Source: an uncultured Chitinophagaceae bacterium
GTDB lineage: Bacteria; Bacteroidota; Ignavibacteria; UBA10030; UBA8401
Length of the DNA: 64,000 bases
Assembly: GCA_964603685.1 (NCBI GenBank)
Contig: CAZRWF010000003.1
Span: 13,501-77,500 of the forward strand
Direction of reading: 5' to 3'
In this document: one piece after another, positions 1 through 17,594 of the stretch
How the letters are laid out: each line of letters begins with the position of its first letter
Position numbering within the stretch: position 1 is the stretch's first letter
Notes under the pieces: generated by a model
What the model saw: the letters and a program-made list of their open reading frames with translations, nothing else
What the model was told of the DNA's origin: nothing
The model's database searches: none
Position numbers and translations under genes: made by a program

Positions 1-363
1 TGCGATATTCGCCACCACCGGCGCGGCACCTGTTCCCGTTCCGCCTCCCATTCCCGCGGTAACGAACACCATGTCGCTGTTGGCCAGCACGCGCGCGATT
101 TCCTCCTTATCCTCTTCTGCCGCCCGCTGTCCGACCGTCGGATCGGCGCCGGCGCCGAGGCCACGGGTGAGGTTTTTGCCGATGCGGATTTTGGAAGAGG
201 ACGAGTTGCGTTCCAGCGCTTGCACGTCGGTATTGATCGCGACGAAATCGACGCCGCTCAATCCGCGGGTGATCATGCTGTGAACGGCATTCGTTCCGCC
301 GCCGCCGACACCGACGATGCGGATCTTTGCGCCATTTTCGGACGGGCTGTCGAATTCAATTGC
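1..363 (-). CDS. ftsZ: Cell division GTPase FtsZ, N-terminal fragment (runs off the window)
   Basis: Reverse translation from the ATG at 363 gives [28 protein letters not shown]...[22 protein letters not shown] (tubulin/FtsZ GGGTGTG signature); no stop before position 1; terminal position of the dcw cluster. Confidence 0.85.
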
Positions 364-580
364 CATAGGAGCTCCTTTAGTTTGGTGATGGATTGGTTGT
401 TAGTTTACATTCTTAATGAGTCAATGACGTCAGAGACCAAAAGTTCGTCGTCAAAGTATTTTTACCTGTCTGTCGAATTCCGACGAACTATGCGAAAATT
501 TCATCGGAGTGAATATATATTTTGTCATGTTTTTTGGTGTCGGGTGTGTGATTTCTGAACACTGACATCGTTTTTGATTT

Positions 581-1822
581 TCACAATTCGTCAAACCATC
601 CCTTCATCCGTTTGAAGATGGAATTTTCTTTTCCGCTCACTTTAGGTTCGGCCACGTTTCCGGCTGCGCCGCGTGCGCGGTTTTTAATCGCATGCAGCAC
701 CAGTCCGACGCCGGTGGCATACATCGGATTTTCGATTTCGCGCACGAATCCGCCGCGGAATCCCCGCGGTATGCCGATTTTCACCGGCATGCCGAGCACT
801 TCGCGGGCCAGATCGGCCGTCCCTTTTACGAGCGCGCCGCCGCCGGTCAACACAACGCCGGCGGATAGATGTTTTTGATATCCCGATCGTTTGATCTCCA
901 ACGCCGCGATTTCGAGTATCTCCTCCATGCGCGGCTGGATGATCTGGCACAACATCTGGGTGTCGATCGTCATCGGCTCCCGCCCGCCGATGCCCGGAAT
1001 GGTGAACGGGAAATTTTCGGCGATCGACGTGATGTGTGTATGCCCGTACTTCAATTTGATTTCTTCCGCCTGCGTCGTCAGTATCCCCAGGCCGCGGCGC
1101 ACATCGTCGGTCACTTTGCTTCCGGCGATCCCGATCACCGCCGTGTGGCGGATGGTGCGGTCGGCAAACACCGCCAGATCGGTCGTGCCGCCGCCGATAT
1201 CGATCAGCACCACGCCGACTTCCTTTTCTTCGCCGTCCAACACCGCATCGCTCGAGGCGAACGGCTCCAGCACGATGTCGCTCACCGACACGCCGGCACG
1301 CTGCACGCAGCGGATGATGTTCTGCGTTGCGGTCACCAGTCCGGTGATGATATGCACGGTCGCTTCCATCCGGACACCCGACATGCCGACCGGTTCATAC
1401 ACGCCGTCCTGTCCGTCCACGATAAATTCCTGCGGGACGACATGGAGGATCTTCCGGTCCGACGGCAGCGCGATTTTTTTCGTATCCTCGATCAGCCGGT
1501 TCACATCCGCCTGGGTGATCTCCTGTTCCGCGCCGCTGATGGCAACGACGCCCCGGCTTTGAAAACTTTGAATATGATCGCCGGCGATACCAGCGACGAC
1601 CGATTGAATCTTCACGCCCGATTGCGCTTCGGCATCGTGGATGGCTGCTTTGATGGACTCCACCGTCCGTTCGATATGCGTAATCACGCCGCGCGTCAAT
1701 CCCTCCGATTTGCTTTTCCCGATGCCGAGAATATTAATCTCGTTGTTCGGGCTGACCGAGGCGACTATGGCGCAGATCTTCGTTGTTCCGATGTCCAAAC
1801 CGACATAAATATGTTCGTTCAT
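581..1822 (-). CDS. ftsA: Cell division protein FtsA (actin-like ATPase)
   Basis: 413 aa, MNEHIYVGLDIGTTKICAIVA... actin/HSP70 fold motifs; purine-rich SD-like GGGAAAGAAGAAGGA upstream; sits between ftsQ and ftsZ. Confidence 0.95.
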   Translation of the reverse strand: MNEHIYVGLDIGTTKICAIVASVSPNNEINILGIGKSKSEGLTRGVITHIERTVESIKAAIHDAEAQSGVKIQSVVAGIAGDHIQSFQSRGVVAISGAEQEITQADVNRLIEDTKKIALPSDRKILHVVPQEFIVDGQDGVYEPVGMSGVRMEATVHIITGLVTATQNIIRCVQRAGVSVSDIVLEPFASSDAVLDGEEKEVGVVLIDIGGGTTDLAVFADRTIRHTAVIGIAGSKVTDDVRRGLGILTTQAEEIKLKYGHTHITSIAENFPFTIPGIGGREPMTIDTQMLCQIIQPRMEEILEIAALEIKRSGYQKHLSAGVVLTGGGALVKGTADLAREVLGMPVKIGIPRGFRGGFVREIENPMYATGVGLVLHAIKNRARGAAGNVAEPKVSGKENSIFKRMKGWFDEL

Positions 1823-1845
1823 TCTATCCTTCTTCTTTCCCTGAG

Positions 1846-2664
1846 TTATGAGTTACCCGAAACGACGACTTGATCGTCGAATCGCAGATCGATATACCGG
1901 ATCTCTTTGGAATCTCCGTTCCGGAGAAACGTCTTCCGGAAAGCATCGAGTTTTACCATTTTTTTCACCGCGTCACCCTTGCCGAAAATGATCGGCACGC
2001 CGGCATCGAACGAATACAACACCAGATCTTTTCCTTTCCGGAGGCGGATTTCGGAAATGGAATGGTACAACTCCGGTCCGGTCGCCTGTGCGGCGTTGAT
2101 GATTTCGAGCGCCTCGTTCACATCGGCGCTGATCAATTTTTGTCCGGCGCGGAGTCCCGCCAGCGAATCCAATCCGCTGATCACCGGAATGTCGTACGTT
2201 TCCGTCGATGCGACAAACGGCAGCAGCGTCCCGTCCGCCGCGATATAGAACATCTCTTTCGCCACCACAATGGCGGAGGGGACGCGTTCCTCCACGATCA
2301 CGCGGATGGTGGAGGGAGCATCCCGCTGCAGAACGACGTTTTTCACGAAACTGTTCGAGAGGATGTTCCGCTGCACGGCGGTCAAATCAACCGCATACAT
2401 CGGAACATTCGGCGGCAGTTTCATCAGCCGGACAATTTCGTCCTTCGTAATGACGCTGATTCCTTCGACCGTCACCTGTTTCACCGGAACATGATCCTGC
2501 CATTGTGATTTCACGGCGTACAACATCAGTACGGCGAACACGAGCAGGGTAAAATAGACGTACACCCGCTTACCGTGTTTCGGTTCGGCCGGATCGGCCG
2601 TGTCGACGTTCTCCCGATATTCTAGATCGCTCTTCATCATTGCTGCGGAATTATTTCGATTCAT
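1846..2664 (-). CDS. ftsQ: Cell division protein FtsQ/DivIB (POTRA domain, N-terminal TM helix)
   Basis: 272 aa, one TM helix (VYVYFTLLVFAVLMLYAV), position between murC and ftsA, overlaps murC by 14 bp. Confidence 0.8.
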   Translation of the reverse strand: MNRNNSAAMMKSDLEYRENVDTADPAEPKHGKRVYVYFTLLVFAVLMLYAVKSQWQDHVPVKQVTVEGISVITKDEIVRLMKLPPNVPMYAVDLTAVQRNILSNSFVKNVVLQRDAPSTIRVIVEERVPSAIVVAKEMFYIAADGTLLPFVASTETYDIPVISGLDSLAGLRAGQKLISADVNEALEIINAAQATGPELYHSISEIRLRKGKDLVLYSFDAGVPIIFGKGDAVKKMVKLDAFRKTFLRNGDSKEIRYIDLRFDDQVVVSGNS

Positions 2665-4030
2665 TCAAAAATTGTTCGCCGAATTTCCAGATATCCCCCG
2701 CCCCCATGGTGATGACGATGTCGCCGCTTTTTGTGATCTTCTTTAAATACGCCGGAACGTTTGTTTTATCCTGCACATAATGCGTCTCTTTGTGGCCGTA
2801 CTGCTTGGCGGCATTGACGATCAATTCCCCCGTCACACCCTGGATCGGCTCTTCGCGCGCGGGATACACATCCGTTACCACCAACACGTCCGCGAAGAGA
2901 AACGCTTTGCCGAACTCTTCATAAAAATCCCTCGTGCGGGAATACAAATGCGGCTGGAACACGCACACGACCCGCTTGCGCCATCCGGATTTCACGCCGC
3001 TTAACGTTGCTTTACACTCGGTGGGATGATGCGCATAATCGTCGTACACCACGATTCCGTTCACTTCCCCTTTTTTCTCCCATCGGCGGTACACGCCGGC
3101 GAATTTTTCGATCCCCGCCTTCACCAGGGAGAACGGCACATTCAGGTTCAAACCGACGGCGATCGCCGCCAGCGCGTTCTGCACGTTGTGTTTTCCCGGA
3201 ATCTGCAGCGTCACCGATCCGAGCTCGGCCGTACCGCGGATGACCGTGAACTGCGTGGTGTTCTCTTTATGATGGATCTCCACCGCCTGCACGTCGGCTT
3301 GCGGGGAGTGCAATCCGTACGTGATCACTTTTTTCTTGCTCAGCTGCGGCAATATGTCCTGCAATGCCGGTTCATCGAGATTCAACACGACAAATCCGTA
3401 AAACGGTACTTTGTTCGCAAATTGTACGAACGCCCCTTTGATGTCTTCCAGATCGCGGTAACAATCAAGATGATCGGTCTCCAGCGTCGTCATCACCGCA
3501 ATCGCGGGAGTAAGGGACAAGAAGGAACGGTCGAATTCATCCGCCTCCACCACGATAAATTCCCCTTTTCCGAGCCGGGCGTTCGTGCCGCCGAGTCCGC
3601 TCAGTTTACCGCCGACGATCACCGTGGGATCGAGGCCCCCTTCCATCAACACAAGGCTGGTCATGGAGGTGGTGGTGGTTTTTCCGTGCGTGCCGGCGAT
3701 ACCAATGCCGTATTTCAGCCGCATCACTTCCGCCAGCATCTCCGCCCGGCGGACGATGGGGATATTCCGACGGAGTGCTTCCTGCACTTCGGGATTATCG
3801 TTGATCACCGCCGACGAATACACCAGCGTATCGACATCCGCCGCAACATGTTCGGCACGGTGGCCTTCAAAGATTTTCGCGCCGAGCGATTCCAGCCGTT
3901 CCGTAACGTCGCTTTTTGCACGGTCCGAACCGGACACCGCAAATCCCTGATCGAGAAGGATCTCGGCGATCCCGCTCATTCCTATTCCGCCGATGCCGAC
4001 GAAGTGTAATTTTTTAATGGAAGAAAACAT
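2651..4030 (-). CDS. murC: UDP-N-acetylmuramate--L-alanine ligase MurC
   Basis: 459 aa; HFVGIGGIGMSGIAEIL, GTHGKTTTTSM P-loop of the Mur ligase family. Confidence 0.95.
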   Translation of the reverse strand: MFSSIKKLHFVGIGGIGMSGIAEILLDQGFAVSGSDRAKSDVTERLESLGAKIFEGHRAEHVAADVDTLVYSSAVINDNPEVQEALRRNIPIVRRAEMLAEVMRLKYGIGIAGTHGKTTTTSMTSLVLMEGGLDPTVIVGGKLSGLGGTNARLGKGEFIVVEADEFDRSFLSLTPAIAVMTTLETDHLDCYRDLEDIKGAFVQFANKVPFYGFVVLNLDEPALQDILPQLSKKKVITYGLHSPQADVQAVEIHHKENTTQFTVIRGTAELGSVTLQIPGKHNVQNALAAIAVGLNLNVPFSLVKAGIEKFAGVYRRWEKKGEVNGIVVYDDYAHHPTECKATLSGVKSGWRKRVVCVFQPHLYSRTRDFYEEFGKAFLFADVLVVTDVYPAREEPIQGVTGELIVNAAKQYGHKETHYVQDKTNVPAYLKKITKSGDIVITMGAGDIWKFGEQFLNESK

Positions 4031-4072
4031 GGAGTCAATATTTGTAAAGTAATAAAGAGTGAAATGGCTGAA

Positions 4073-4561
4073 TTATTTTGCCGTGAACTGAAATCGTTTT
4101 TCTCTTTTCGGCACCAGCGTCGCGATCTGTTCCATTTGCTTCACCAATTCGCGGTCCCGTTCGTACCGTCCCACACGGATGCGGTACGTACGCCGCCGGT
4201 GTTTCATTTTGATGATCACGATCCGGAAACGCCCCGCGGTGCGCACGGTCCGCTCTTTGCCGATGTAGATCCACTCAATCTCCGGTACCTTCAGCTCCCG
4301 TTTGCTGAAGCGGGAGTGGAACACGATCGCCTGTTCCGAAACGATGATCTTCCGGTCCCGGATTTTGTTTAATACCAGAGTGACAAACGATATCCCCACG
4401 AACAGGGCGATCACGTACATGATCGGATCGTGGAAAACGACCGTGACGCTGTCTTCCACGATGGTCCCTTTGATCCCCATGTACAGCACCAGCGTGACCA
4501 GATAGATCAACGCCTGCTGATAATAGAAATCCAGTTTATACCGGTGTTCTGCGTGTGTCAT
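4073..4561 (-). CDS. Membrane protein with two TM helices and a bacterial PH-like (YdbS/YdbT-type) domain
   Basis: ORF 4073..4630 trimmed to the internal ATG at 4561, which forms an ATGA overlap with the stop of the upstream MORN gene; two hydrophobic helices followed by a basic beta-rich domain typical of bPH_2. Confidence 0.55.
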   Translation of the reverse strand: MTHAEHRYKLDFYYQQALIYLVTLVLYMGIKGTIVEDSVTVVFHDPIMYVIALFVGISFVTLVLNKIRDRKIIVSEQAIVFHSRFSKRELKVPEIEWIYIGKERTVRTAGRFRIVIIKMKHRRRTYRIRVGRYERDRELVKQMEQIATLVPKREKRFQFTAK

Positions 4562-5172
4562 TCGATCTTGATCCCGTTTTTGTATGCTTCGTCGCGGGTT
4601 TTCCTTCCGGAAGTGTCCCATTGAATCCACTTCCCGTCCCGTTTTCCGTTGAAAAATTCGCTCTCCTCCTGTTTTTTGGCTCCGGGGAAGAACAACACTT
4701 CCGTAATACGCTCTCCGTTGCGGAGATACATCATTGTCGGATCGCCGTTTTCGTCATAATATTCCCAGGTGGAGACGTTCGTCCCTTCCCGGCGCCGCGT
4801 CCGCCCGTCCTCGAAAAACTCCTCATACAAAAAATGTTTCACCGGACCTTCCATCCATTTCAGGGAGCGCGTTTCGATCTGTTTGTTCGGATAATAACTG
4901 ATGTACTTCGATGCATTCCCCGAATTGTCCGTCAGGTAAAATTCCGATTTCAGCGACCCGTCCTTGTAAAATCCGAATGCCTTCACGTTTTTTCCGTTGC
5001 GGTAATACCGCTCCACGGAAATGTCACCGTATTTGAGCGAATGAATTGTCTCCAGCGACGTATAATTTTCGATCTTCTTTTTCGTGACGGTGGTCCGCAC
5101 AATCAGGTATCCTGCCACCACGGAACAAAAGATCATCCCCAACAACAGCACCGTTCCCCATTGCTGCTTCAT
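4558..5172 (-). CDS. MORN-variant (YwqK-family) repeat protein, N-terminal signal-anchor
   Basis: 204 aa; N-terminal TM helix; repeats of type 'FFNGKRDGKWIQWDTSGRKTRDEAYKNGIK' (MORN_2/YwqK-like). Confidence 0.7.
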   Translation of the reverse strand: MKQQWGTVLLLGMIFCSVVAGYLIVRTTVTKKKIENYTSLETIHSLKYGDISVERYYRNGKNVKAFGFYKDGSLKSEFYLTDNSGNASKYISYYPNKQIETRSLKWMEGPVKHFLYEEFFEDGRTRRREGTNVSTWEYYDENGDPTMMYLRNGERITEVLFFPGAKKQEESEFFNGKRDGKWIQWDTSGRKTRDEAYKNGIKIE

Positions 5173-5213
5173 CGTTTCCCCCGATTAAACATCATGGCAA
5201 AAATTGTTTCCGT

Positions 5214-5810
5214 TCAACGCACGAAGGCACCGTCGCGATACAAATCATTTCTGGTGACGTTCCCCGCCGTGTCCCATTCGATCCATTTCCCGTTCCTGCG
5301 GTCGTTCTTCCATTCCCCCAGTTCTTTCAACTTTCCGTTTTCGTGCCAGCGCCGGACCAACACGATCTCGCCGTTTTTGAACGTGGACGACAGTTTTTTC
5401 TGACCGCTCTCAAAAAATTCCTCGTTCAATTCCGAATCCGCTCGAGTTTTCAGAAAACCGTTCTCGTAATATTCGCGGTAGAACACCCGGTTCGTATCCT
5501 GCCAGACCATAATCACGCGGGTCCGTCCATTCCGGAAAAAACTGATGGTGCTGTCGTATTCCCGCGTTTCGCTCCGCGTGTGATATTCGAACGCCGTTTT
5601 TCCGTTATCGAACCAGGCGATCAGCTTCACCATTTTGCCGTCGCGGTAATGTTCTTCCGCTTCCAGATCCCGCTTTTGCCGTGCAAAAAAATCGGTCCGG
5701 GTTGTTTTGTACACGCCGTCGCGCGGCGGTTTTCCTTCGCTGATCGTCCGCACTTTGCATCCGGCCGCGGCGAACATCAGAACGATCATCCAGAGGAGCG
5801 GACTTTTCAT
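5214..5810 (-). CDS. MORN-variant (YwqK-family) repeat lipoprotein
   Basis: 198 aa; lipoprotein signal MKSPLLWMIVLMFAAAGC; repeats 'RRNGKWIEWDTAGNVTRNDLYRDG'; start ATG overlaps the murG stop (ATGA at 5807-5810). Confidence 0.7.
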   Translation of the reverse strand: MKSPLLWMIVLMFAAAGCKVRTISEGKPPRDGVYKTTRTDFFARQKRDLEAEEHYRDGKMVKLIAWFDNGKTAFEYHTRSETREYDSTISFFRNGRTRVIMVWQDTNRVFYREYYENGFLKTRADSELNEEFFESGQKKLSSTFKNGEIVLVRRWHENGKLKELGEWKNDRRNGKWIEWDTAGNVTRNDLYRDGAFVR

Positions 5811-6883
5811 GCGACGAGGGCGTATAGTTTTTCCACAATCTCTTTTCCGGCCTCCGGTTTTCCGATAGCGCGGCTGTTGTTTTCCATCTCCTTCCGGCGT
5901 CGACCGTCCTCGAGCAAATCCTTTATCCGGGGAAGGAGTGCGGTCTTCAGATCGCGGTCATTCAACATCACGGCCGCTCCCGCTTCCACCATCGATGCAG
6001 CATTCAGCGTTTGATGGTCCGCCGCGGCAAATGGAAACGGGACAAGGATCGCCGGTTTTCCCACTCTCGTCAATTCCGCTAATGTCGTGGCTCCGGACCG
6101 GCAGACCACCAGATCGGCCGCAGCGTAACCGCAATCCATCCGCTCGATGTATGTGCGAACGATGATGTTCGTGTGCCGCACCGGTGATGCCTCTTCCTGC
6201 GCCGATTCTCCGGTCTGCCAGATCACTTGATAATCTTCCGCTATCGCATCCTTCACCACCGCGGGCATGGCGGCATTCAAGGAGGCCGCGCCGAGACTTC
6301 CACCGAAGACGAACACTGTTCGTTTTGCCGGTGAGAGCCCGAAATATTCCGCACCGCGTTCGCGCGTAATTTCCGACAATTCGTTGCGGGTGGGATTTCC
6401 CACCACATCGACCGTTGCTTTCGGAGAGAGCCACCGTTTTGTCGCCGCGAACGTGACGAACACTCTGTCCGCCCGCGACGCCAGCATCCGCGTCGTCACG
6501 CCGGGATAACTGTTGCTCTCGTGCACCACGGTCGGAATTCCCATCACCGAAGCAACGAACAACACCGGGCCGCACACATATCCGCCGGTGCCGAGCACGA
6601 TCTGCGGACGAACTTTTCGAATGACAAAGAACGATTGCACCAGCGACACGATCACTTTCAACGGGAAGAGGATGTTGCTCAGCCGGAGCCGCCGGCTGAA
6701 TCCGCTGATCCAGATCGTATGAAATTCATATCCTTTCGCCGGCACCACGCGCGCTTCGATCTTTCCGGCGGTGCCGACAAACACCGCGCGGTTCGCGGGA
6801 TCTTTTTTCGTCATCTCCTCCGCGATGGCAATAGCGGGATACAAATGTCCGCCCGTGCCTCCACCCGCAAAAAGGATCGTCAT
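5807..6883 (-). CDS. murG: UDP-GlcNAc:lipid I N-acetylglucosaminyltransferase MurG
   Basis: 358 aa; MTILFAGGGTGGHLYPAIAIAEEM GT28 N-terminal motif. Confidence 0.95.
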   Translation of the reverse strand: MTILFAGGGTGGHLYPAIAIAEEMTKKDPANRAVFVGTAGKIEARVVPAKGYEFHTIWISGFSRRLRLSNILFPLKVIVSLVQSFFVIRKVRPQIVLGTGGYVCGPVLFVASVMGIPTVVHESNSYPGVTTRMLASRADRVFVTFAATKRWLSPKATVDVVGNPTRNELSEITRERGAEYFGLSPAKRTVFVFGGSLGAASLNAAMPAVVKDAIAEDYQVIWQTGESAQEEASPVRHTNIIVRTYIERMDCGYAAADLVVCRSGATTLAELTRVGKPAILVPFPFAAADHQTLNAASMVEAGAAVMLNDRDLKTALLPRIKDLLEDGRRRKEMENNSRAIGKPEAGKEIVEKLYALVA

Positions 6884-6884
6884 A

Positions 6885-8057
6885 TCAATAAATCTTTCCG
6901 ACCGCCGGTTCGATTGCCGACGGTGCTTGTTCCATAAACATCCGTTCGCGCGGATGCAGATCGGTCTGCGAGGAAATATTCAGCAGAACGCCGACCGCAA
7001 AGGACGAAAAGATGATTGCCGTACCGCCGTAACTGACAAACGGCATCGGTATGCCGGTGGTCGGTGCCAATCCGAGCGTCACGAGCGCGTTCGCAACGGC
7101 ATACAACACAATGGTACACGTGATGCCGATGGCGAGATATTTCCCGAAATCATCCGGCGCATATTTCGCGATCTTCAATCCCCGCAGCAGAATCATCAAA
7201 TAGAGGCCGACAAAAACGATCGTGCCGATCAATCCGTATTCCTCGCCGACGATGGAAAAGATGAAGTCGCCGTACGATTCCGGAAGAAACAGGTCGCGTT
7301 GCTTGCTTTGCCCCATCCCGACCCCGAAGATCCCGCCGTTCCCGAATCCGATGATCCCCTGCAGCAACTGGTAATTCGCCGTCGATGTCACCGTCTCGTC
7401 ACCGCCGAATCCGACGTACGACAGGATCCGTTTCATCCGGTACGGCGCACTGATCATATACACAAGCAACGCCGGCAACAGCGCGCATAACGAGAAAAAA
7501 ACATGTTTCAACCGCGCTCCGCCGACGAAGACGAGAATCATTCCCAGCACGAAGATCATCGAACCGGTGCTGAAGTTCGGCTGCAGCATCACCAGCACCA
7601 CCACGCTGCCGATCCAGATCATCAGCGGCATAAATCCGGTTTTAAAGTCCGCCAGTTTCTCCCGCTTGTTGGAGAGCAGGAAGGCCAGGTGGAACAACAG
7701 TGCAAACTTCGCAATCTCCGACGGCTGCAGGCTGAAACCGCCGATGGACAGCCAGCGCGCCGCCCCTTTGATTTCGCCGCCGGTAAGACGTGTCGCCGCC
7801 AGCAGCAAAATGGATCCGATGAGCACCCATTTGGTCAGCGGTTTGTATTTTTTGTAGTCAAAATTCATCGCAAAAAACATCACCACCAGTCCGACGAGGA
7901 TTTTGGCGATATGTTTGTTCACCAATCCGCTGGCGGACTGCATCTTCTGCATCGCCCAGGTGGACGAGGCGCTGTACACCACAACGGTACTCGCCACCAT
8001 CAGAATGAGGACGACGAACAACGTTATGCGGTCGATATGATTTTTCTGCGACGCCAT
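6885..8057 (-). CDS. ftsW: Peptidoglycan glycosyltransferase / lipid II flippase FtsW (SEDS family)
   Basis: Polytopic membrane protein with SEDS motifs; start set to ATG 8057..8055, which gives a TAATG overlap with the murD stop (the ORF track extends to 8135). Confidence 0.9.
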   Translation of the reverse strand: MASQKNHIDRITLFVVLILMVASTVVVYSASSTWAMQKMQSASGLVNKHIAKILVGLVVMFFAMNFDYKKYKPLTKWVLIGSILLLAATRLTGGEIKGAARWLSIGGFSLQPSEIAKFALLFHLAFLLSNKREKLADFKTGFMPLMIWIGSVVVLVMLQPNFSTGSMIFVLGMILVFVGGARLKHVFFSLCALLPALLVYMISAPYRMKRILSYVGFGGDETVTSTANYQLLQGIIGFGNGGIFGVGMGQSKQRDLFLPESYGDFIFSIVGEEYGLIGTIVFVGLYLMILLRGLKIAKYAPDDFGKYLAIGITCTIVLYAVANALVTLGLAPTTGIPMPFVSYGGTAIIFSSFAVGVLLNISSQTDLHPRERMFMEQAPSAIEPAVGKIY

Positions 8058-9436
8058 TACGAAATCTCGTGCACCAGCTGTTTGAAAATTTTTCCGCGTT
8101 CTTCGTAGTCCCGAAACCAATCGAACGACGTACACGCGGGAGAGAGCATTACGATCTCACCCGGCGCCGCCAGCGTTGTTGCCGTCTCGATCGTTTTCCG
8201 CATCGAGGCGATATTCGGAATCGCGGTGCCGTCCGTCGGAACCACGGTGACAGGAACGATTCCCGAAAAATTTTTCACGATCGTATCGGCGGAATATCCG
8301 GTGGCGACGATCGCTTTCACTTTCTTTTTCACCAGATCAACAATGGTGGAATAGTCATTCCCCTTGTCTTTTCCCCCCATGATGAGGACTATCGGACGAT
8401 CGTAACTGTTCAGGGACATCTCCACCGCTTCGACCGTGGTCGCTTTGGAATTGTTGATATACGCGATTCCGTTCACTTCCCGCACGAACTCTTGACGGTG
8501 CTCCACCCCTTTAAAATTCCGGAGCGTCGATTTGATATCGGCCGGCGTTACACCCGCCAACATTGCCGCCAGAGTCGCCGCCATCGCGTTGCGCAGGTTA
8601 TGTTCCCCTTTGATCGAAATCTCCTCCGCCGCGATGATCGCCCGCTCCTTCCCCGACAGCGTTACGGTGAGCATCCGGTCCTTCACGAACGCGCCGGACT
8701 CCACTTTCCGCCGCGAACTGAATTCGACAACGCCGGAACGAACACCGACGACCGTTTTGTTTGTCCAGACATCGTCCGCATGACGCACGAAAAAATCGCC
8801 CTCCCGCTGGTTTTTCACAATCCGCGCTTTGGAGGCCGCGTAAAGTTCCATGGAGTGATCGTACCGGTCGAGATGGTTCTGCGTGATGTTGACGATCACG
8901 GCGATCTTCGGACGAAACGTGTCGATAAAATCCAACTGGAAGCTGCTCACTTCCAGAACGACAACAGTTTCTTCATCAACGTCCAGAACGACGGATGAGA
9001 ATGCCGTTCCAATGTTACCCGCAACAACATGTTTTTTCTTTGCATCGGCGAATATCCTCCCGAGTAATGTTGTGGTGGTCGTTTTTCCGTTGCTGCCGGT
9101 GACGGCAATAATCGGAGCGGAACAAAACCAGCTGGCAACTTCGATTTCCGCGACGATGGTGATACCGCGTTTCGCCGCTTCTTTCACCACCGGCGCATTC
9201 GTCGGCACGCCGGGGCTGATAACCATCAGCGAACAGTCGTAAACCAGTTCACTGTGTCCGCCGAATTCGCCGGCGATCTTCTCCGCCGCCAATTCCGCAA
9301 TGTGCCGCTGCGTGCTTTCGCTATTCCCGAAATCGCTGACGAACGGAATCGCCCCTTTCCCATGAAGAAGTTTTGCCGCCGCCACACCGCTCCGTTCCGC
9401 ACCGATCACGCTGATTTTTTTTCCCCGGACGTCCAT
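8057..9436 (-). CDS. murD: UDP-N-acetylmuramoylalanine--D-glutamate ligase MurD
   Basis: 459 aa; ISVIGAERSGVAAAKLL, GSNGKTTTTTL P-loop. Confidence 0.95.
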   Translation of the reverse strand: MDVRGKKISVIGAERSGVAAAKLLHGKGAIPFVSDFGNSESTQRHIAELAAEKIAGEFGGHSELVYDCSLMVISPGVPTNAPVVKEAAKRGITIVAEIEVASWFCSAPIIAVTGSNGKTTTTTLLGRIFADAKKKHVVAGNIGTAFSSVVLDVDEETVVVLEVSSFQLDFIDTFRPKIAVIVNITQNHLDRYDHSMELYAASKARIVKNQREGDFFVRHADDVWTNKTVVGVRSGVVEFSSRRKVESGAFVKDRMLTVTLSGKERAIIAAEEISIKGEHNLRNAMAATLAAMLAGVTPADIKSTLRNFKGVEHRQEFVREVNGIAYINNSKATTVEAVEMSLNSYDRPIVLIMGGKDKGNDYSTIVDLVKKKVKAIVATGYSADTIVKNFSGIVPVTVVPTDGTAIPNIASMRKTIETATTLAAPGEIVMLSPACTSFDWFRDYEERGKIFKQLVHEIS

Positions 9437-9444
9437 TCTGCTAA

Positions 9445-10560
9445 TTACCGGACCTTAAACGTCGTTAAACTCAGGATCATCATCAGAATCGCCAAAATGT
9501 AGAACCGGGTGACAATTTTCGGTTCGGCCCAGCCCAACAATTCAAAATGATGATGAATCGGCGCCATTTTAAAAATGCGCCGCCCTTCGCCGTATTTTTT
9601 CTTTGTGTACTTAAAATAAAACCGCTGCACGATGACGGAGACCGTCTCCAAAAAGAAGATGCCTCCGAGGATCGGCAGAATAAGTTCCTTTTTCGCCATC
9701 ACCGTCAGCGCGCCGATCGCCCCGCCGAGCGCGAGCGATCCCGTATCCCCCATAAACACCTGCGCCGGGTAGGAGTTGTACCACAAAAATCCGAGTGCGG
9801 CGCCGACGAGCGCGATGCAGAACACCACGAGTTCGCCGTTTCCCCGCAGATAGATGATGTTGAGGTAGCTGCTGAACTCAATGTTTCCGGAGATATACAC
9901 AATGATCCCGAGCGTCATCGCGACGATGCCGGACGTGCCGATCGCCAGGCCGTCCAATCCGTCCGTCAGATTCACCGCGTTGGATGTGGCGGTGATGATA
10001 AAAATCACGAGCGGGATATAGAATATTCCGAAATCGAATTCCAAATTTTTAAAGAACGGAACGGTCGTCACCGTATTGGCATCGATCGCTTTTAATTCCG
10101 GCATCGTATACAGTACCGTTCCGAGGATCGCGCCGATCGTCACTTGTCCGATGATCTTGTACCAACCGATCAATCCTTCCTTTTTCTTTTTGACGATTTT
10201 CAGATAATCGTCCATAAATCCGACAATGCCGAGTCCGCCGGTGACGACGATGATCATCTGCACATAGGTATTCGTCAAATCCGCCCACAACAGCGTCGGA
10301 AGAAGGATGGCCGCGATGACGATAATGCCCCCCATCATCGGCGTGCCGGCTTTCAGTTTGTGTTTTTCCGGCGATCCTTCGCGGTACGTGGTGACGATCC
10401 CTTTTTCTTTCAACAGCGTAATCACCTTTCCGCCGATGATAAAACTGATGAACAAGGCGGTAATGGCCGCCATGGCCGCCCGAAACGTGAGGTATTTTAC
10501 CACGCCGAATCCCGGGGGATTGTACACCTGTTCGATCCAATACAAAAGATGGTACAACAT
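9445..10560 (-). CDS. mraY: Phospho-N-acetylmuramoyl-pentapeptide transferase MraY
   Basis: 371 aa polytopic; NAVNLTDGLDGLA and HHHFELLGW motifs. Confidence 0.95.
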   Translation of the reverse strand: MLYHLLYWIEQVYNPPGFGVVKYLTFRAAMAAITALFISFIIGGKVITLLKEKGIVTTYREGSPEKHKLKAGTPMMGGIIVIAAILLPTLLWADLTNTYVQMIIVVTGGLGIVGFMDDYLKIVKKKKEGLIGWYKIIGQVTIGAILGTVLYTMPELKAIDANTVTTVPFFKNLEFDFGIFYIPLVIFIITATSNAVNLTDGLDGLAIGTSGIVAMTLGIIVYISGNIEFSSYLNIIYLRGNGELVVFCIALVGAALGFLWYNSYPAQVFMGDTGSLALGGAIGALTVMAKKELILPILGGIFFLETVSVIVQRFYFKYTKKKYGEGRRIFKMAPIHHHFELLGWAEPKIVTRFYILAILMMILSLTTFKVR

Positions 10561-12002
10561 CAGCGGTGCTCCTTATGATTCATATGATCGGCGGCGCCGG
10601 TTAACGCGGCCACCACCTCTTCCATCTTCATGCCGCGCGATCCTTTAATCAGCACGACGTCGCCGTGCGTGAGCGTCGAACGGAGCGCTGCGGAGAGTTC
10701 CTCTTTTGTTTCCCAGTGACGCGCCGCGGGACCGAACGCTTCGCTCGTGTATTTCGAAAACGGGCCGAAGGTATACAACCGGTCAAATTTCATTTCGGAA
10801 GCAACGACGCCGATGTTCGTATGTTCCCGTTTGGACGCATCGCCGAGCTCACGCATATCGCCGAGAACGACGATCTTCTTTCCGCTCGTGGTAAAGGACT
10901 GCAGCGTGTGCAGCGCGGCAATCACCGAGTCGGGATTGGAGTTATAGGTGTCGTTCAGAATGATGATGCCGTTCGACGACAATACTTCCATCCGCTTCGA
11001 TGCCGAACTGAAGGAGCGCAATGCCGCGGCAATTTTTTTCGGCTTCACTTTTAATTTTAATCCGATCGACGCAGCGGCAAGAGCGTTCACCACGTTGTGC
11101 CGCCCCGGCACGGCCAGGCGGATTGCACATTCGATATTCTTTTTCTGCCAGACGACGCGGAACGAAGATTGCCCCAGTTCATTCTGTTCGATCCGCTTCG
11201 CCCGGATATCCGCCGCGGAAGAGGTGCCGTAACAGATTGATCGCCGCAGGGCAGAACAATCTTCCGCCAGATACGGATCGTCGGCATTGACGAACGCCGT
11301 CCCTCCGGTCTCCGACAGATACGCGAACAATTCCCGTTCCTCCTTGGCCACCCCCTCTTCGTCGACGAAAAATTCCAGATGTTCTTTCCCGATATTCGTA
11401 ATGATGCCGTGCGTCGGCTCGGCGATGCCGCACAGGTACCGGAGTTCGCCGAAATGGTTCGTGCCGATCTCCACCACGGCCACATCGTGTTTCGGAGTGA
11501 GCCGGAACAACGTTTGCGGGACGCCGATATGATTGTTCAAATTTCCTTCGGTGGACAAAACGCCGTATTTCGTACTCAACACAGCCGTGATCATCTCTTT
11601 GGTCGTGGTTTTGCCGTTGCTTCCCCCCACGGCGATCACGGGAATATCGAATTTCCGCCGGTAGATCCGCGCCAGTTCGCCGAAGGCGGTCGTCGTATCG
11701 TTGACGATGACGAACGCGCACGGGAACGTGCGGAAAGCCGGTTCGTGATTCTGTGCCCATTCGCGGTGCACCACCACAGCCGCCGCTTCTCCCCGTACGA
11801 CATCGTCGATAAAATTATGCGCGTCGAATTTTTCCCCTTTGAGCGCAAAAAAAAGGTCGTTCTTCCGTACCGCACGGGAATCGGTCGTCACGCCGGAAAT
11901 CGGGCGCCGTTTCAACAATTCTTTGTTGATCAGCTCCGCTCCGGTCAGTTTTTGCAGATCTTTGGCCGTGATCTTTTTCATGATTCCCTGTCCGTTCAAC
12001 AC
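10560..12002 (-). CDS. murF: UDP-MurNAc-tripeptide--D-alanyl-D-alanine ligase MurF
   Basis: 480 aa; VIAVGGSNGKTTTKEMI. Confidence 0.9.
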   Translation of the reverse strand: MLNGQGIMKKITAKDLQKLTGAELINKELLKRRPISGVTTDSRAVRKNDLFFALKGEKFDAHNFIDDVVRGEAAAVVVHREWAQNHEPAFRTFPCAFVIVNDTTTAFGELARIYRRKFDIPVIAVGGSNGKTTTKEMITAVLSTKYGVLSTEGNLNNHIGVPQTLFRLTPKHDVAVVEIGTNHFGELRYLCGIAEPTHGIITNIGKEHLEFFVDEEGVAKEERELFAYLSETGGTAFVNADDPYLAEDCSALRRSICYGTSSAADIRAKRIEQNELGQSSFRVVWQKKNIECAIRLAVPGRHNVVNALAAASIGLKLKVKPKKIAAALRSFSSASKRMEVLSSNGIIILNDTYNSNPDSVIAALHTLQSFTTSGKKIVVLGDMRELGDASKREHTNIGVVASEMKFDRLYTFGPFSKYTSEAFGPAARHWETKEELSAALRSTLTHGDVVLIKGSRGMKMEEVVAALTGAADHMNHKEHR

Positions 12003-12009
12003 CGGTCCG

Positions 12010-13497
12010 TCATAAATATTTCAGGATCTCTTCTTTATCGCTGAAGTGGATTTTCTCTTTTCCGACCACCTGATAATCTTCGTGCCCTTTTCCCGCCACG
12101 AGAATCACATCGCCGGGTTTCGCCATTCTGATCCCTGCCGCGATCGCCTTTGCACGATCGGGTTCCACAATCACCCGCTCTTTTGATGACATGCCGGCCA
12201 GAACATCGTTGATGATGTCCATCGGATTTTCCGTCCGCGGATTATCCGAAGTGACGATCACCCGATCACTCAGCCGCTCCGCGATCGCTCCCATTTTCGG
12301 ACGTTTTGTGGTGTCGCGGTCACCGCCCGCTCCGAAGATGGCGATGATCGTGTTCGTTCGATCCGTCGGGAGCACGTCGTGGATCGTTTGCAGACAATTC
12401 TCCAGCGCATCCGGCGTATGTGCGTAATCGACGATCGCCGTCCATCCTTTCGGGGAACGGATCTGGTCGAATCGTCCGGGAGCGGGAACAAGCGCTTTGA
12501 TCCGCTCGGGGGTCACCGTCATGCCTAATGCCGTCACGGCGGTGTAGGCGGCAAGCACGTTCGAGACGTTAAAACGGCCGACGAGTGCGGAGGCAATCGC
12601 CGTTCCGTTCACCTCGGCGGTGAATCCGTTCACGCTTACGGCAACGTTTTTCGCCGAAACATCGGCGGCGGAATTGACGCCGTACGTTCGCACCGCCGCG
12701 GCGATTCCCTTCACCATCGCCGCACCGTAGTCCGAGTCCGCATTCGTCACGGCAACCGCCGTTCCGTCCAACGAATCGAACAACATCTTTTTTGCCCGGC
12801 AATATTCTTCCATCGTTCCGTGATAGTCCAAATGATCCTGCGTGAGATTTGTAAAAACTCCGGCGGCAAACGGAATGCCGAACGTACGGAACTGGTGAAG
12901 CGCGTGGGACGACGTTTCCATCACACAATGGGTGCAGCCGCTCCGCACCATCCGGTCGAACAACCGGTGAAGTTCCAGCGATTCCGGAGTGGTATGCGTC
13001 GCGGGGATCCGTTCCGCGCCGATCATATATTCCACCGTGCCGATCAGTCCGACGTTGTTGTTCGGATCCGCTTCCAACAACTGTTTGATTAAAAATGTCG
13101 TCGTCGTTTTTCCGTTCGTTCCGGTCACACCGATCATCTTCATTTTTGCGGCCGGACGGCCGTAATAATTGGCAGCGATTTGCGCGAGTGCCTTCCGCGT
13201 ATTTCCCACCACCACCTTCACCGTACCGGTGTGCATGCACATCGCGTCGGGAATCGACGCGTCATCTTCCACGACGATCACTTTTGCCCCGTTCGCAATC
13301 GCGGAGGAGAGAAAAGCGTGACCGTCCGCCCCTCCCCCTTTTAACGCCACGAAAAGATTTTCCCGCTGCACCAGCCGGGAATCGTATTGCACGCCGCTGA
13401 CTTTGACGTCGTGCGTCGTCACCATCTTCCCGTACATGGTCTGGAACATTTTGGAGACCGCAACGCCTTGTAGTATTGCCGATAATGTCATGGTCAA
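12010..13497 (-). CDS. murE: UDP-MurNAc-L-Ala-D-Glu--2,6-diaminopimelate ligase MurE
   Basis: 495 aa; IGVTGTNGKTTTTFLI, DNPR motif near C-terminus. Confidence 0.95.
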   Translation of the reverse strand: MTMTLSAILQGVAVSKMFQTMYGKMVTTHDVKVSGVQYDSRLVQRENLFVALKGGGADGHAFLSSAIANGAKVIVVEDDASIPDAMCMHTGTVKVVVGNTRKALAQIAANYYGRPAAKMKMIGVTGTNGKTTTTFLIKQLLEADPNNNVGLIGTVEYMIGAERIPATHTTPESLELHRLFDRMVRSGCTHCVMETSSHALHQFRTFGIPFAAGVFTNLTQDHLDYHGTMEEYCRAKKMLFDSLDGTAVAVTNADSDYGAAMVKGIAAAVRTYGVNSAADVSAKNVAVSVNGFTAEVNGTAIASALVGRFNVSNVLAAYTAVTALGMTVTPERIKALVPAPGRFDQIRSPKGWTAIVDYAHTPDALENCLQTIHDVLPTDRTNTIIAIFGAGGDRDTTKRPKMGAIAERLSDRVIVTSDNPRTENPMDIINDVLAGMSSKERVIVEPDRAKAIAAGIRMAKPGDVILVAGKGHEDYQVVGKEKIHFSDKEEILKYL

Positions 13498-13510
13498 TCC
13501 ATCAATACAA

Positions 13511-15712
13511 TCAATATAATTGTGCGGCAGTGATCAATCGCGGTTCGCAGATGATCGTCACCGTCGTTCGCTGTTTCACCGGCGTGCCGGGACTCGGAAA
13601 TTGTCCGGTCACCACACCGGAGCCGACAATGGTCACGCCCCATTGTTCTGCTGCCAGTTTGTTCACCGCGCGACGGATGCTCATACCGCGGAGGTCGGGG
13701 ACCGCCTGTGCACCGGACACCACCGCCTGTTCCGATTCGTTCATCATCAACTGCACGATGGAGCCCCGTTCTACTTTTTTTCCTGCCGGCGGATATTGAC
13801 GCACCACGGCGTCTCCGGTACCGATCACTTTCGCAGCGAGGCCCGATCGTTTTAGTTCTGCTTCCGCCTCTTCCGCGTCATCACCCGAAACGTCCGGAAT
13901 CGAGACGGTGGCGGCCGCTTCCTTATCCGGTGCGGACGTCTGCACCCGCTGTTCGGCGATCATCGTTTTGGCAATCAATCCGTTGTTGTGGATGATCCTG
14001 TCCGCAATCGCTTTGAACACCGGCGCACTGGCCGTCGCACCGTAATATCCCCCCGCTTTCGGCTTTTCGAGAATGACCAAACAGACGATCTCCGGTTTTT
14101 CCACGGGAAAAAATCCGACAAAGGAAGCGTTATAACTCCCTTCCTCGTATTTTCCGTTCACATGTTTTCGGGATGTCCCCGTTTTACCGGCGATGCGGAC
14201 GCCCGGAGTTTTTACCACCGTTCCGCTGCCGTATTCCACCACGCTTTCCAGCATTTGTTTGATCTGGTCGTTCACCGGTTTCGGATTCACCCGCCGGATC
14301 ATCTGCGGCTGCCCCGCGGATACTTCCTGACCGTGTTCGTCGGTTTCCCGTTGCACGATATACGGTTTCATCAACACGCCGTCGTTGGCAACGGCGGCGT
14401 ATGCGGACACGATCTGCAGCGGTGTGACTCCTACTTCATATCCGTACGCGATCGAATTGAGGGAAGCCATGGACCACTCGGATGTTTTTTTCAATTGCCC
14501 GTTGCTCTCCGCCGGAAGTTCGATTCCGGTCGCCATACCGAACCCGAAATCACGCGCCTGTGCATACAGCCGTTCCGGTCCGATCAGGTCGCTCACTTTC
14601 GCCATGACGATGTTGGAGGAATAGGCCATCGCTTCCAAAAAAGTCACGTCGCGCATCGGATGCGAATCGTTGATCAGCCGGAATTTCTTTCCCGGATATT
14701 CGATCCGGTATTTTCCGTTTTCGCCGTAAAATTTCTTCTCGAGCGACGTGATGCCGTGCTCTAATGCGGCGGAGGCGGTGACAACTTTAAACACCGAACC
14801 GGGTTCGTACATATCGGAGATGATTCTATTCTTTAACGCGTCGGCATTCTGCACTTTGTTCAGATTCACCTGCGGGTAGTTTGCCATCGCAAGGATCTCG
14901 CCGGTGTGCGGACGCATCATCACGACCAGGCCGGCTTCCGCATGCGTCCGCGCCACCCCTTTTTTTAATTCTTCATCCGCGATGGATTGGTAGTGGAGAT
15001 CGAGCGTTAACGTGATGTCGTGTCCGTTCACCGCCTCTTCGCGCGGATAATCGACCGACGGACGTTTTCGTCCCAGTCCGTCCTTTTGCATGATCACGTA
15101 TCCGTTTCGTCCCCGCAGCACACCGTCGAACTGTTGTTCGATTCCGCTTACGCCGACATTGTCGATGTTTGTCGCTCCGAGCACTTGGCCCGCCAATTCG
15201 TCGTAATGATAGATGCGCATCGCTTCGTTCATCTTCACGATTCCCCCCATTTTTTTCAGGGGGATCCGTTCGGCAACATCCGGACGGAGATGGCGTTCGA
15301 TCCAGACGAAGCGTTTGCTGCTCTGCAGTTTGGCGATGTATTCCCGTTCCGGCTTGCCGGTCACTTTCGAAAATTCCCGGGCGATGAAAGCCGCATCGTC
15401 GCCGGCGATTTTCGGATCGGCTGCGAACGAAACGAAGTCCGAGTTGGCAACGAGCACATTCCCGTTCCGGTCGTAAATGTTCCCCCGCTCCGCCACCAGC
15501 GGAACGCGTGCTTCATACTGCCGTTTGGCGATCTCCTGATATTTTCCCGATTCGATCAGCTGGATCTGCACCAGGCGGGCGGCCGCCGCGGCAAAAAGGA
15601 GCAAGAAGACGACTTTCACCATCAGCAGGCGATGGCGATAATCTTTCACGGCGGGAGTTTCCGCCGGCCGATCGTCCGTTGTTCGTGAAAATGGATTCCA
15701 CATACCGTTCAC
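13511..15712 (-). CDS. ftsI: Class B penicillin-binding protein FtsI/PBP3 with two C-terminal PASTA domains
   Basis: 733 aa; N-terminal TM helix, dimerisation + transpeptidase domain, then two PASTA-like repeats (VSIPDVSGDDAEEAEAELKRSGL...; AVPDLRGMSIRRAVNKLAAEQWGV...). Confidence 0.9.
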   Translation of the reverse strand: MNGMWNPFSRTTDDRPAETPAVKDYRHRLLMVKVVFLLLFAAAAARLVQIQLIESGKYQEIAKRQYEARVPLVAERGNIYDRNGNVLVANSDFVSFAADPKIAGDDAAFIAREFSKVTGKPEREYIAKLQSSKRFVWIERHLRPDVAERIPLKKMGGIVKMNEAMRIYHYDELAGQVLGATNIDNVGVSGIEQQFDGVLRGRNGYVIMQKDGLGRKRPSVDYPREEAVNGHDITLTLDLHYQSIADEELKKGVARTHAEAGLVVMMRPHTGEILAMANYPQVNLNKVQNADALKNRIISDMYEPGSVFKVVTASAALEHGITSLEKKFYGENGKYRIEYPGKKFRLINDSHPMRDVTFLEAMAYSSNIVMAKVSDLIGPERLYAQARDFGFGMATGIELPAESNGQLKKTSEWSMASLNSIAYGYEVGVTPLQIVSAYAAVANDGVLMKPYIVQRETDEHGQEVSAGQPQMIRRVNPKPVNDQIKQMLESVVEYGSGTVVKTPGVRIAGKTGTSRKHVNGKYEEGSYNASFVGFFPVEKPEIVCLVILEKPKAGGYYGATASAPVFKAIADRIIHNNGLIAKTMIAEQRVQTSAPDKEAAATVSIPDVSGDDAEEAEAELKRSGLAAKVIGTGDAVVRQYPPAGKKVERGSIVQLMMNESEQAVVSGAQAVPDLRGMSIRRAVNKLAAEQWGVTIVGSGVVTGQFPSPGTPVKQRTTVTIICEPRLITAAQLY

Positions 15713-16182
15713 CGTTTTTTCATCCGTTCCTGCACTTCCGCAATCCGGTCCGGATCGATCTCAAACCATGTCGGCGCCTCTTTCGGATTGGTCATGCCGA
15801 GTTTTTCCTGCGCCATCAAGCTGATCCGCTCCAGGCTCGCCTTCCGGTTGATCTCCGCTTTGATTACTTCGTTGGTGCTGACGATCTGATTATAACGCGC
15901 ATTCAAGTCGTTCACTTCTTTGGCGAGATTGTTCACCGCAATCACGTTTCCCACATACAACACTGCCGCCGTTGCAATCAGGAACAGCAGACCGACGATG
16001 TTCGACGTTTTCGCCCGTTTTTTTACATTCACCCGGCGGACGTTCTGCCGCGGCAGGGCATATCCGGGATTTTCGGCGGACATATCCGACGGCATCGCAA
16101 TGGCGTTATTATAGATAGGCCGGTCATTGAAGGCCGGCATCACTGCGGTGTCGAGGGGAGTATGGGAAAATTGTTTTGCCAT
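15709..16182 (-). CDS. ftsL: FtsL-like cell division protein (single TM helix + coiled coil)
   Basis: 157 aa; TM helix IVGLLFLIATAAVLYVGNV followed by a coiled-coil region; position between rsmH and ftsI; ATGA overlap with ftsI. Confidence 0.6.
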   Translation of the reverse strand: MAKQFSHTPLDTAVMPAFNDRPIYNNAIAMPSDMSAENPGYALPRQNVRRVNVKKRAKTSNIVGLLFLIATAAVLYVGNVIAVNNLAKEVNDLNARYNQIVSTNEVIKAEINRKASLERISLMAQEKLGMTNPKEAPTWFEIDPDRIAEVQERMKKR

Positions 16183-16185
16183 GGT

Positions 16186-17118: not shown

Positions 17119-17594
17119 TCTTTGTTCTCGAACAATCGCTGGGCCACCGTCACATAATCCTCCTGCTGCGCGTCCATATATTTTTTGAACTCGTTCGGAT
17201 TCCAGACTTCAATCCGGTCGAACGCACCGAGGATGAACACATCGCCGCTGATCCCCGCATACTCCATCAACTCTTTCGGAAGGACGATGCGATGTTGTCC
17301 GTCGAGTTCCGCATCCGTGGCGTACTGGAGCATTTGGCGCGTGTACAAACGCGACCGCTGATCGGTCTGCGGAAGTTTTGCGAGTTCCTGCTCACGTTTT
17401 GCCCATTCATCGTTCGGATAGACAAAAATGCAATTTTCAAATCCGCGCGTGATCACGAAAGAACCGTTCGCCTCCGGCGAAAGATTTTTACGCATCTTTG
17501 CAGGGATATTGATCCGCCCCTTGCTATCGACCGTATAATGAAATGAGCCTTTAAAAGAAGACATGGTTCGTTCGGTTTTTACCTTTTGGGTCAA
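17115..17594 (-). CDS. mraZ: Transcriptional regulator MraZ
   Basis: 159 aa; two MraZ/SpoVT-AbrB-like halves (FKGSFHYTVDSKGRINIPAKMR...). Confidence 0.95.
   Translation of the reverse strand: MTQKVKTERTMSSFKGSFHYTVDSKGRINIPAKMRKNLSPEANGSFVITRGFENCIFVYPNDEWAKREQELAKLPQTDQRSRLYTRQMLQYATDAELDGQHRIVLPKELMEYAGISGDVFILGAFDRIEVWNPNEFKKYMDAQQEDYVTVAQRLFENKE

Follow-up and report, generated by a model that had tools for sequence, protein, structure and literature searches.

Few gene arrangements in bacteria are as well conserved as the division and cell wall (dcw) cluster, and lineage-specific additions to it are a known phenomenon: non-canonical genes sit in the dcw clusters of Firmicutes and Actinobacteria, and actinobacterial CrgA is a two-transmembrane (TM) divisome protein. 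Here we describe P3, a 162-amino-acid membrane protein whose gene adjoins murC, together with two genes of the MORN_2 type (MORN-A and MORN-B) that lie between murG and P3, in the dcw cluster of a 64,000-nt stretch of DNA (contig CAZRWF010000003.1 of assembly GCA_964603685.1, positions 13,501-77,500, forward strand), hereafter called the window. A survey of the dcw cluster lists only 17 canonical genes (PMC8871954). Among the enzymes encoded there, MurG is reported to oligomerise and to bind Mur ligases, as in B. pertussis, where the MurG oligomer binds MurE-MurF (PMC6420597), and MurG-MraY-MreB/FtsQ complexes are described in E. coli (PMC2170320). For membrane proteins of the architecture discussed below, Xu et al. 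2010 (PMC2817789) report that the PHb domain of TM-containing bacterial PH (PHb) families lies inside the cell and that such domains assemble into oligomeric rings.

Set against these systems, P3 most resembles the bPH_2/bPH_4 (YdbS/YdbT-like) and DUF1696 PHb families, which have, as it is predicted to have, a pair of TM helices at the N-terminus and then, inside the cell, a PH-like sandwich with a C-terminal helix cap, and most of whose members, like P3, are without an established biochemical function. It differs from them by an additional conserved motif at its cytoplasmic N-terminus (YKLDFYYQQ), by the extreme basicity of its domain and by having no bPH_2 match and only sub-threshold matches to bPH_4, EbsA and STM3941_fam. 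We know of no fixed position after murG for the bPH/PHb families, and none was found in the literature searched; nor did that literature hold a gene at the murG-murC junction in Ignavibacteria or a PH-like protein tied to MurG. With proteins of the CrgA type, P3 shares small size, a restricted lineage distribution, a place in the membrane and a genetic link to the machinery of division and the cell wall, but its cytoplasmic domain is PH-like, no sequence relationship links it to them, it occupies the murG-murC slot and, among the genomes examined, it appears confined to Ignavibacteria-like lineages. The MORN genes, for their part, are like known MORN_2/YwqK proteins in the PF07661 match of MORN-A and, for MORN-B, in the PF07661 matches and YwqK names of its homologues and in a predicted model built of beta-hairpin repeats; unlike the usual YwqK protein, they appear to be membrane-tethered, lie inside the dcw operon, have no toxin partner and belong to tiny subfamilies (3 and 25 clusters, respectively).

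The object of interest at this locus is P3, not the MORN pair. The original prediction, made from the sequence of the interval, had treated all three genes as a lineage-specific accessory module of the divisome or of peptidoglycan (PG) synthesis; synteny upholds this for P3 only, and the three genes are not one module, because P3 is fixed lineage-wide whereas the MORN genes are confined to a shallow subclade and are repeatedly absent within it. We are confident in P3 as an authentic dcw gene found throughout the lineage and in the MORN genes as optional extras, and we lean, with considerably less assurance, towards a fuller reading in which P3 is a lineage-specific core dcw gene that acts with MurG at the inner membrane face while the MORN genes are dispensable. 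The interval and the genes that bound it are as follows:

5807-6883, minus strand: murG (Pfam Glyco_transf_28 and Glyco_tran_28_C, E ~1e-37)
5807-5810, minus strand: ATGA in which the murG stop and the MORN-A start overlap (read directly)
5214-5810, minus strand: MORN-A, 198 amino acids, open reading frame (ORF) for a predicted MORN_2-repeat lipoprotein
4558-5172, minus strand: MORN-B, 204 amino acids, ORF for a predicted N-terminal TM helix and a MORN_2-like hairpin-repeat domain
4558-4561, minus strand: ATGA in which the MORN-B stop and the P3 start overlap (read directly)
4073-4561, minus strand: P3, 162 amino acids, ORF for two predicted TM helices and a PH-like domain
2651-4030, minus strand: murC (Pfam Mur_ligase, Mur_ligase_M and Mur_ligase_C)

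Both the ORFs and the minus-strand sequence agree with the original prediction that three non-canonical genes, co-directional and tightly coupled, lie between murG and murC, and the first ATGA reads as it had been described. The second ATGA had been assigned to the end of the first MORN gene; its overlap with the P3 start is real, but the partner is the second MORN gene. In loci L002 and L027, too, a MORN gene overlaps P3 in a similar way, and wherever a MORN gene is present it abuts or overlaps the P3 start. The remaining spacers are short (41 nt from MORN-A to MORN-B and 42 nt from P3 to murC), and a scan of the interval found no excess of terminator-like or promoter-like sites over shuffled sequence. 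The ATGA overlaps, the 41-42 nt gaps and the lack of surplus terminator-like sites are indirect evidence for co-transcription, in which case P3 would be made from the same transcript as murG and would often be translationally coupled to murG and murC. Rfam and tRNA scans of the window gave no matches. A longer P3 ORF with a GTG start (4073-4630) was considered and rejected, as every homologue starts at the Met that matches the ATG at 4561.

The evidence that carries the case for P3 is its genomic position. At E<=1e-3, P3 has 630 homologues (55-75% identity), all of ~160 amino acids, and those with names all come from Ignavibacteriales or from metagenome-assembled genomes (MAGs) labelled 'Bacteroidota bacterium'. 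A pattern scan with one genome per species found P3 encoded in 249 species genomes, from which neighbourhoods were extracted for the 80 best loci. Here murC lies downstream in 80 of 80, and murG lies directly upstream in every one of the 74 loci with enough upstream flank; the lone flag raised in the position survey (L049) was an overlap artefact. The distance from murG to P3 ranges from -14 to about +150 nt and is mostly below 50 nt, that from P3 to murC is often 0-30 nt or an overlap, and in relatives that have no MORN genes murG is coupled directly to P3. As a side observation from the same survey, several MAGs that carry an Ignavibacteria-type dcw locus (L006, L009, L010 and others) bear labels such as 'Chitinophagaceae', 'Chitinophaga pinensis', 'Synechococcus sp.' or 'Acidobacteriota', which probably reflect taxonomic mis-assignment or bin contamination.

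The association persists at much greater distances. An exhaustive profile search extended the P3 family to 176 clusters at 50% identity, none of which contains a fusion of P3 to another domain. Among its distant members (five representatives on seven contigs, 20-32% identical to the window P3), the gene stands directly after murG in all cases. Two of these contigs (L084 and L088) keep the order murG, P3, murC, murB, ftsQ, ftsA, ftsZ, with overlaps of 1-8 nt at the murG junction, while in three others (L086, L090 and L091) the cluster is otherwise broken and the murG-P3 pair is kept. Fixed position and orientation, with short or overlapping spacers, in close and distant members alike, mark P3 as a member of the dcw cluster. 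P3 is also conserved to the same degree as its neighbour, with median identities to the window of 58% for P3 and 57% for MurG (FtsW, 65%; MurC, 83%; FtsQ, 44%). Since the slot next to murG is fixed throughout the class and conservation equals that of MurG, a role for P3 in cell-wall precursor synthesis or division is probable on these grounds.

Some features of the most divergent contigs are worth recording for their own sake. L086 (842-4300) and L087 represent a very AT-rich, highly divergent lineage, whose MurG is 28% identical to that of the window; murG is followed there by the P3-like gene, murC is not adjacent, and the next gene is a 162-amino-acid ORF without an assigned role, beyond which the opposite strand carries toxin-antitoxin pairs (HicAB and DUF4160/DUF2442). 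In L091, a 193-amino-acid ORF (1184-1765) with no Pfam match overlaps the end of P3 in place of murC.

Having established its position, we turn to the predicted structure of P3. The protein begins with the conserved N-terminal motif, followed by TM1 (~10-35), a loop, TM2 (~46-68), the PH-like domain and a K/R-rich tail. The loop between the helices is short and acidic (mean net charge -2.5) with a conserved D-P, and the C-terminal domain (+9.5) and tail (+6) together carry a charge of about +15, with an isoelectric point (pI) of 11.5. Because the loop is acidic and the C-terminal domain strongly basic, the charge distribution indicates an inner-membrane protein whose two termini and PH-like domain are cytoplasmic. 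In the AlphaFold2 (AF2) model, a short N-terminal strand is followed by helices at 10-35 and 46-68, seven strands (71-130) and a C-terminal helix (134-147); confidence is medium (predicted local distance difference test (pLDDT) 75, predicted template modelling score (pTM) 0.52). All Foldseek matches to this model were PH-like, including the bacterial PHb structures 3dcx, 3hsa and 3b77, and the model, at that pLDDT, shows the seven-strand beta-sandwich with a C-terminal helix cap that defines the fold. Hydropathy, charge and the AF2 helices likewise agree with the layout of TM-containing PHb proteins, i.e., two N-terminal TM helices and an intracellular PH domain. A holin-like identity, which two TM helices and a charged C-terminus might suggest, was rejected in view of the class-wide fixed chromosomal position and the lack of phage context.

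The original prediction had called P3 a bacterial-PH membrane protein, which holds for the two TM helices and, by AF2 and Foldseek, for a predicted PH-like fold, but not for membership of the bPH_2 family: in single scans of each of the 38 members of the family alignment against Pfam and NCBIfam, bPH_2 (PF03703) was not matched at E<=1 by the window P3 or by any other member. P3 reached no Pfam or NCBIfam family at threshold. The sub-threshold matches were to bPH_4 (8 of 38 members, best E 0.0059), EbsA-like (15 of 38, best E 1.3e-4) and the NCBIfam family STM3941_fam (23 of 38, best E 1.4e-5; 20.4 bits for the window P3 against a cut-off of 40), and a sequence search of the PDB with the family profile returned nothing even at E<=10. 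Since no family threshold was reached and no solved homologue was found by sequence, the fold assignment depends on the model. P3 is best described as a putative unclassified family within the bacterial PH-like superfamily.

The same architecture lends itself to another reading, namely that P3 has a general part in membrane homeostasis or stress, like the bacterial-PH proteins of the YdbS/YdbT kind, which are linked to antimicrobial-peptide or bacteriocin tolerance or transport, and has merely become fixed in the dcw operon without a particular function in PG synthesis or division. Two TM helices and an intracellular PH-like domain are precisely what the bPH families have, the weak likenesses to bPH_4, EbsA-like and the STM3941 family point the same way, and PH-domain proteins are implicated in bacteriocin transport (PMC8657885). 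A passenger, however, would not be expected to keep its slot, with overlapping codons, from ~66% down to ~20% identity, nor to remain at murG when the cluster breaks up, nor to be conserved as strongly as MurG, and no copies of P3 at other loci were seen among the 80 best genome matches. We consider a stress protein unlikely here, and prefer a function connected with the operon in which P3 resides.

Conservation within the protein bears on a further possibility. The alignment of 38 sequences has 42 invariant columns, and in the deep alignment Y20, P46, R84, I95 and R129 are nearly invariant. Conserved residues thus include positions in the TM helices and the periplasmic D-P loop (Y20 and P46 among them), and the gene directly follows that of the lipid II synthase, which would suit a P3 ring assembled through the PH-like domain whose 2xN TM helices form a channel or platform for the lipid-linked PG precursor made by MurG (a flippase accessory, or a pore-like structure). 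Two TM helices with few polar residues would, however, make a poor channel, and the proposal as a whole, oligomerisation included, is pure inference, so that we regard a pore as improbable.

The extreme basicity of the C-terminal domain raises a third question, whether P3 might be a membrane-anchored DNA- or RNA-binding factor, acting in nucleoid-septum coordination or post-transcriptionally on the dcw mRNA. In line with this, the domain combines its pI of 11.5 with a net charge near +15 including the tail, PH domains from FACT, Rtt106 and TFIIH (binders of histones or acidic partners) are among its best fold matches, and the JGI auto-name of one distant P3 cluster is 'DNA-binding antitoxin AbrB/MazE fold'. 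Yet the most divergent members (e.g., L086) are far less basic and still follow murG; because they keep the position with much less charge, extreme basicity is not family-defining. The auto-names are, moreover, few and inconsistent (mostly AbrB/MazE, with one PRC-barrel and one that is also 'amino acid permease'), fall below curated thresholds and stand among distant clusters named nearly always 'hypothetical'. Basic membrane-proximal PH domains typically bind anionic lipids, which also counts against nucleic acid as the ligand. A nucleic-acid-binding role for P3 thus seems to us about as improbable as a pore.

We therefore return to the reading that we favour, in which P3 acts with MurG. A MurG-centred role is suggested because the murG-P3 pair persists in fragmented clusters, start/stop overlaps are frequent, and the PH-like domain is predicted to lie on the membrane face at which MurG works. 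Under this proposal, P3 would serve as an adaptor or organiser for MurG on the cytoplasmic membrane face, holding or positioning this peripheral enzyme of lipid II synthesis beside MraY/FtsW, perhaps together with the Mur ligases that come next, and it may oligomerise through its PH domain. Such PH-mediated oligomerisation is plausible by analogy with PHb rings and MurG oligomer scaffolds. The MurG-centred Mur complexes of E. coli and B. pertussis provide the proposed context, with which P3 would share the membrane-proximal channelling of PG precursors and neighbouring, coupled genes; they are without a dedicated integral-membrane adaptor encoded beside murG, and binding of P3 to MurG is at this locus proposed only.

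The strength of these claims is not uniform. That P3 acts in PG synthesis or division at all we hold to be rather probable from the comparative sequence evidence. That it is specifically a MurG adaptor is a tentative suggestion on the doubtful side of even, and the most ambitious version, in which P3 is a new, essential, class-wide component of lipid II synthesis or division, i.e., a membrane receptor that docks MurG and the Mur ligases via its basic PH-like domain, possibly as an oligomeric ring, is more doubtful still. If P3 were a MurG membrane adaptor, a bacterial PH-like membrane protein would for the first time have a defined role in cell-wall synthesis, P3 would supply direct genetic evidence for an organised membrane 'Mur complex', and it would be a lineage-specific addition to machinery usually deemed universal. 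If it were a docking receptor, the Ignavibacteria and their relatives would have a dedicated membrane scaffold for the last cytoplasmic steps of PG synthesis that is absent in model bacteria.

Several points weigh against placing P3 with MurG. The proposed function rests entirely on guilt by association, and the fold, with neither a curated family nor a solved sequence homologue behind it, on a model of medium confidence; nucleic acid or anionic lipid, instead of MurG, might just as well be the ligand of a domain of pI 11.5. The MORN domains, in turn, probably lie in the periplasm, across the membrane from the PH domain of P3, so that a direct functional link between P3 and the MORN proteins would be tentative. 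Finally, one contig (L002) is the only one without murG before P3, and in it P3 and MORN-A stay with murC, so that either the murG link is not absolute or L002 is rearranged. Its gene order (1-4327) is SLT lytic transglycosylase (opposite strand), GIY-YIG nuclease fragment, MORN-A, P3, an ORF and murC, where the ORF between P3 and murC encodes a four-helix protein of the 23S-rRNA-intervening-sequence type; such an arrangement suggests insertion of selfish elements or rearrangement at the dcw cluster, or else a chimeric contig.

The two MORN genes present a different picture. Their description as two MORN lipoproteins stands for MORN-A, which matches MORN_2 with 38.8 bits (E 5.1e-10), above the Pfam gathering threshold (PF07661, 29.6 bits), and has a lipobox (..MFAAAG-C-KVR) whose G-C-K/R is kept in its three full-length database members; no A-type copy among the loci lacks an equivalent lipobox Cys ([GA]-C). 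For MORN-B the description does not stand, because Cys16 is not conserved (C/I/V/L/F at the site, most homologues having I, V, L or F) and the hydrophobic segment spans ~20 residues, so that the sequence identifies it as a putative membrane-anchored protein rather than a lipoprotein, with a predicted TM helix at ~5-31 followed by a K-rich segment. MORN-B scores 22.5 bits against MORN_2, below the cut-off, and 9 of its 25 homologues have precomputed PF07661 matches. Its AF2 model (pLDDT 90.9) has an N-terminal helix and then 14 beta-strands in hairpin repeats, for which the nearest solved folds by Foldseek are single-layer beta-sheet and YD-type repeat proteins. The two proteins are ~26% identical and have a C-terminal motif in common (..GKW.[EQ]WD..G), by which they are recognisable as predicted paralogues. 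A search of 5.8 billion sequences for MORN-A returned 3 homologues, itself included.

In contrast to the constancy of P3, one or both MORN genes lie between murG and P3 in only 18 of 88 loci, all of which have a MurC at least 87% identical to that of the window. Both genes are present in the window, L003 and L007; MORN-B alone is found in 9 loci, and MORN-A alone in three (L002, L027 and L029). Three further loci (L008, L030 and L035) have a shorter A-like lipoprotein of 172 amino acids, with ~516 nt between murG and P3, that is 29-33% identical to MORN-A and carries the lipobox ..[AG]-C-[KRT]-V. At least 8 members of the same subclade have no MORN gene, and on a neighbour-joining (NJ) tree of MurC+P3+FtsQ the four states (both, A, B and none) are interleaved. 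Because of this interleaving, the distribution fits one early gain and duplication of the MORN genes followed by repeated differential loss: they may have entered the murG-P3 interval close to the base of the subclade to which the window belongs and later been lost in some members and not in others. We propose that the MORN proteins are dispensable envelope accessories that use the expression of the operon and do not belong to the core machinery. Across the Ignavibacteria-like genomes examined, P3 is the constant occupant of this slot, and the MORN genes are found in close relatives only. The analogy that the original prediction drew to the MORN proteins of eukaryotic division found no backing in our analysis, and neither the literature on the dcw cluster and murG-murC synteny nor that on MORN/YwqK and PH-domain proteins gave a described role for any of the three genes, in agreement with what had been stated.

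It remains to ask whether the MORN genes could instead be a YwqK-type antitoxin or immunity pair, or whether the interval as a whole is a recent transfer or a mis-assembled insert. Several MORN-B homologues bear the JGI name 'antitoxin component YwqK of YwqJK toxin-antitoxin module', and the GC content of the three-gene region (0.49-0.53) is slightly below that of its neighbours. A YwqK antitoxin would be a cytoplasmic immunity protein beside a YwqJ-type toxin, whereas the ORFs of the window show no toxin-like gene beside the MORN genes, whose neighbours are murG, P3 and murC, and whose products have a lipoprotein signal (MORN-A) and an N-terminal TM helix (MORN-B); MORN-A would at least be exported, and both repeat domains are predicted to be membrane-tethered. 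The antitoxin identity was rejected on these grounds, as the original prediction had anticipated in judging the label unfitting. As for an insert, GC content at third codon positions (GC3) is 0.65-0.73 in MORN-A, MORN-B and P3 and 0.61-0.73 in the neighbouring dcw genes, the identical order murG, MORN-A, MORN-B, P3, murC recurs in two independent assemblies (L003 and L007), 15 other loci have a version with a single MORN gene, and P3 is ancestral at the site. An assembly artefact, named from the outset as a possible refutation, and recent horizontal gene transfer were both rejected on the GC3 values and the shared order, and we regard this whole family of explanations as very improbable. For MORN proteins embedded in the dcw cluster, a systematic 'YwqK antitoxin' mis-annotation is thereby corrected, and these proteins are better viewed as putative envelope accessories that are optional, recently gained and often lost.

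The interval lies within a complete dcw cluster that occupies the first 17.6 kb of the window (1..17594) on the minus strand, as judged from ORFs and translations, which also identify the remaining genes:

17115-17594, minus strand: mraZ
16186-17118, minus strand: rsmH
15709-16182, minus strand: ftsL-like gene
13511-15712, minus strand: ftsI
12010-13497, minus strand: murE
10560-12002, minus strand: murF
9445-10560, minus strand: mraY
8057-9436, minus strand: murD
6885-8135, minus strand: ftsW (longest ORF)
1846-2664, minus strand: ftsQ
581-1822, minus strand: ftsA
left end, running off the window, minus strand: N-terminus of ftsZ

Two observations concern these flanking genes. The longest ftsW ORF, which starts at GTG 8135, would overlap murD by 79 nt (8057-8135). 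Because the ftsW genes of relatives align only from ~26 codons further in (390-amino-acid matches), the true start is probably an internal Met (MASQKNH...) just past the murD stop. murC and ftsQ overlap (2651-2664) in the window and in its close subclade, with no murB in between. A spacer of ~1 kb separates the two genes in many deeper relatives (L019, L021, L023-L026, L032, L036-L042, L084 and L088), and in L084 and L088 this spacer is called as murB (FAD_binding_4 and MurB_C); murB has apparently moved out of the dcw cluster in the clade of the window.

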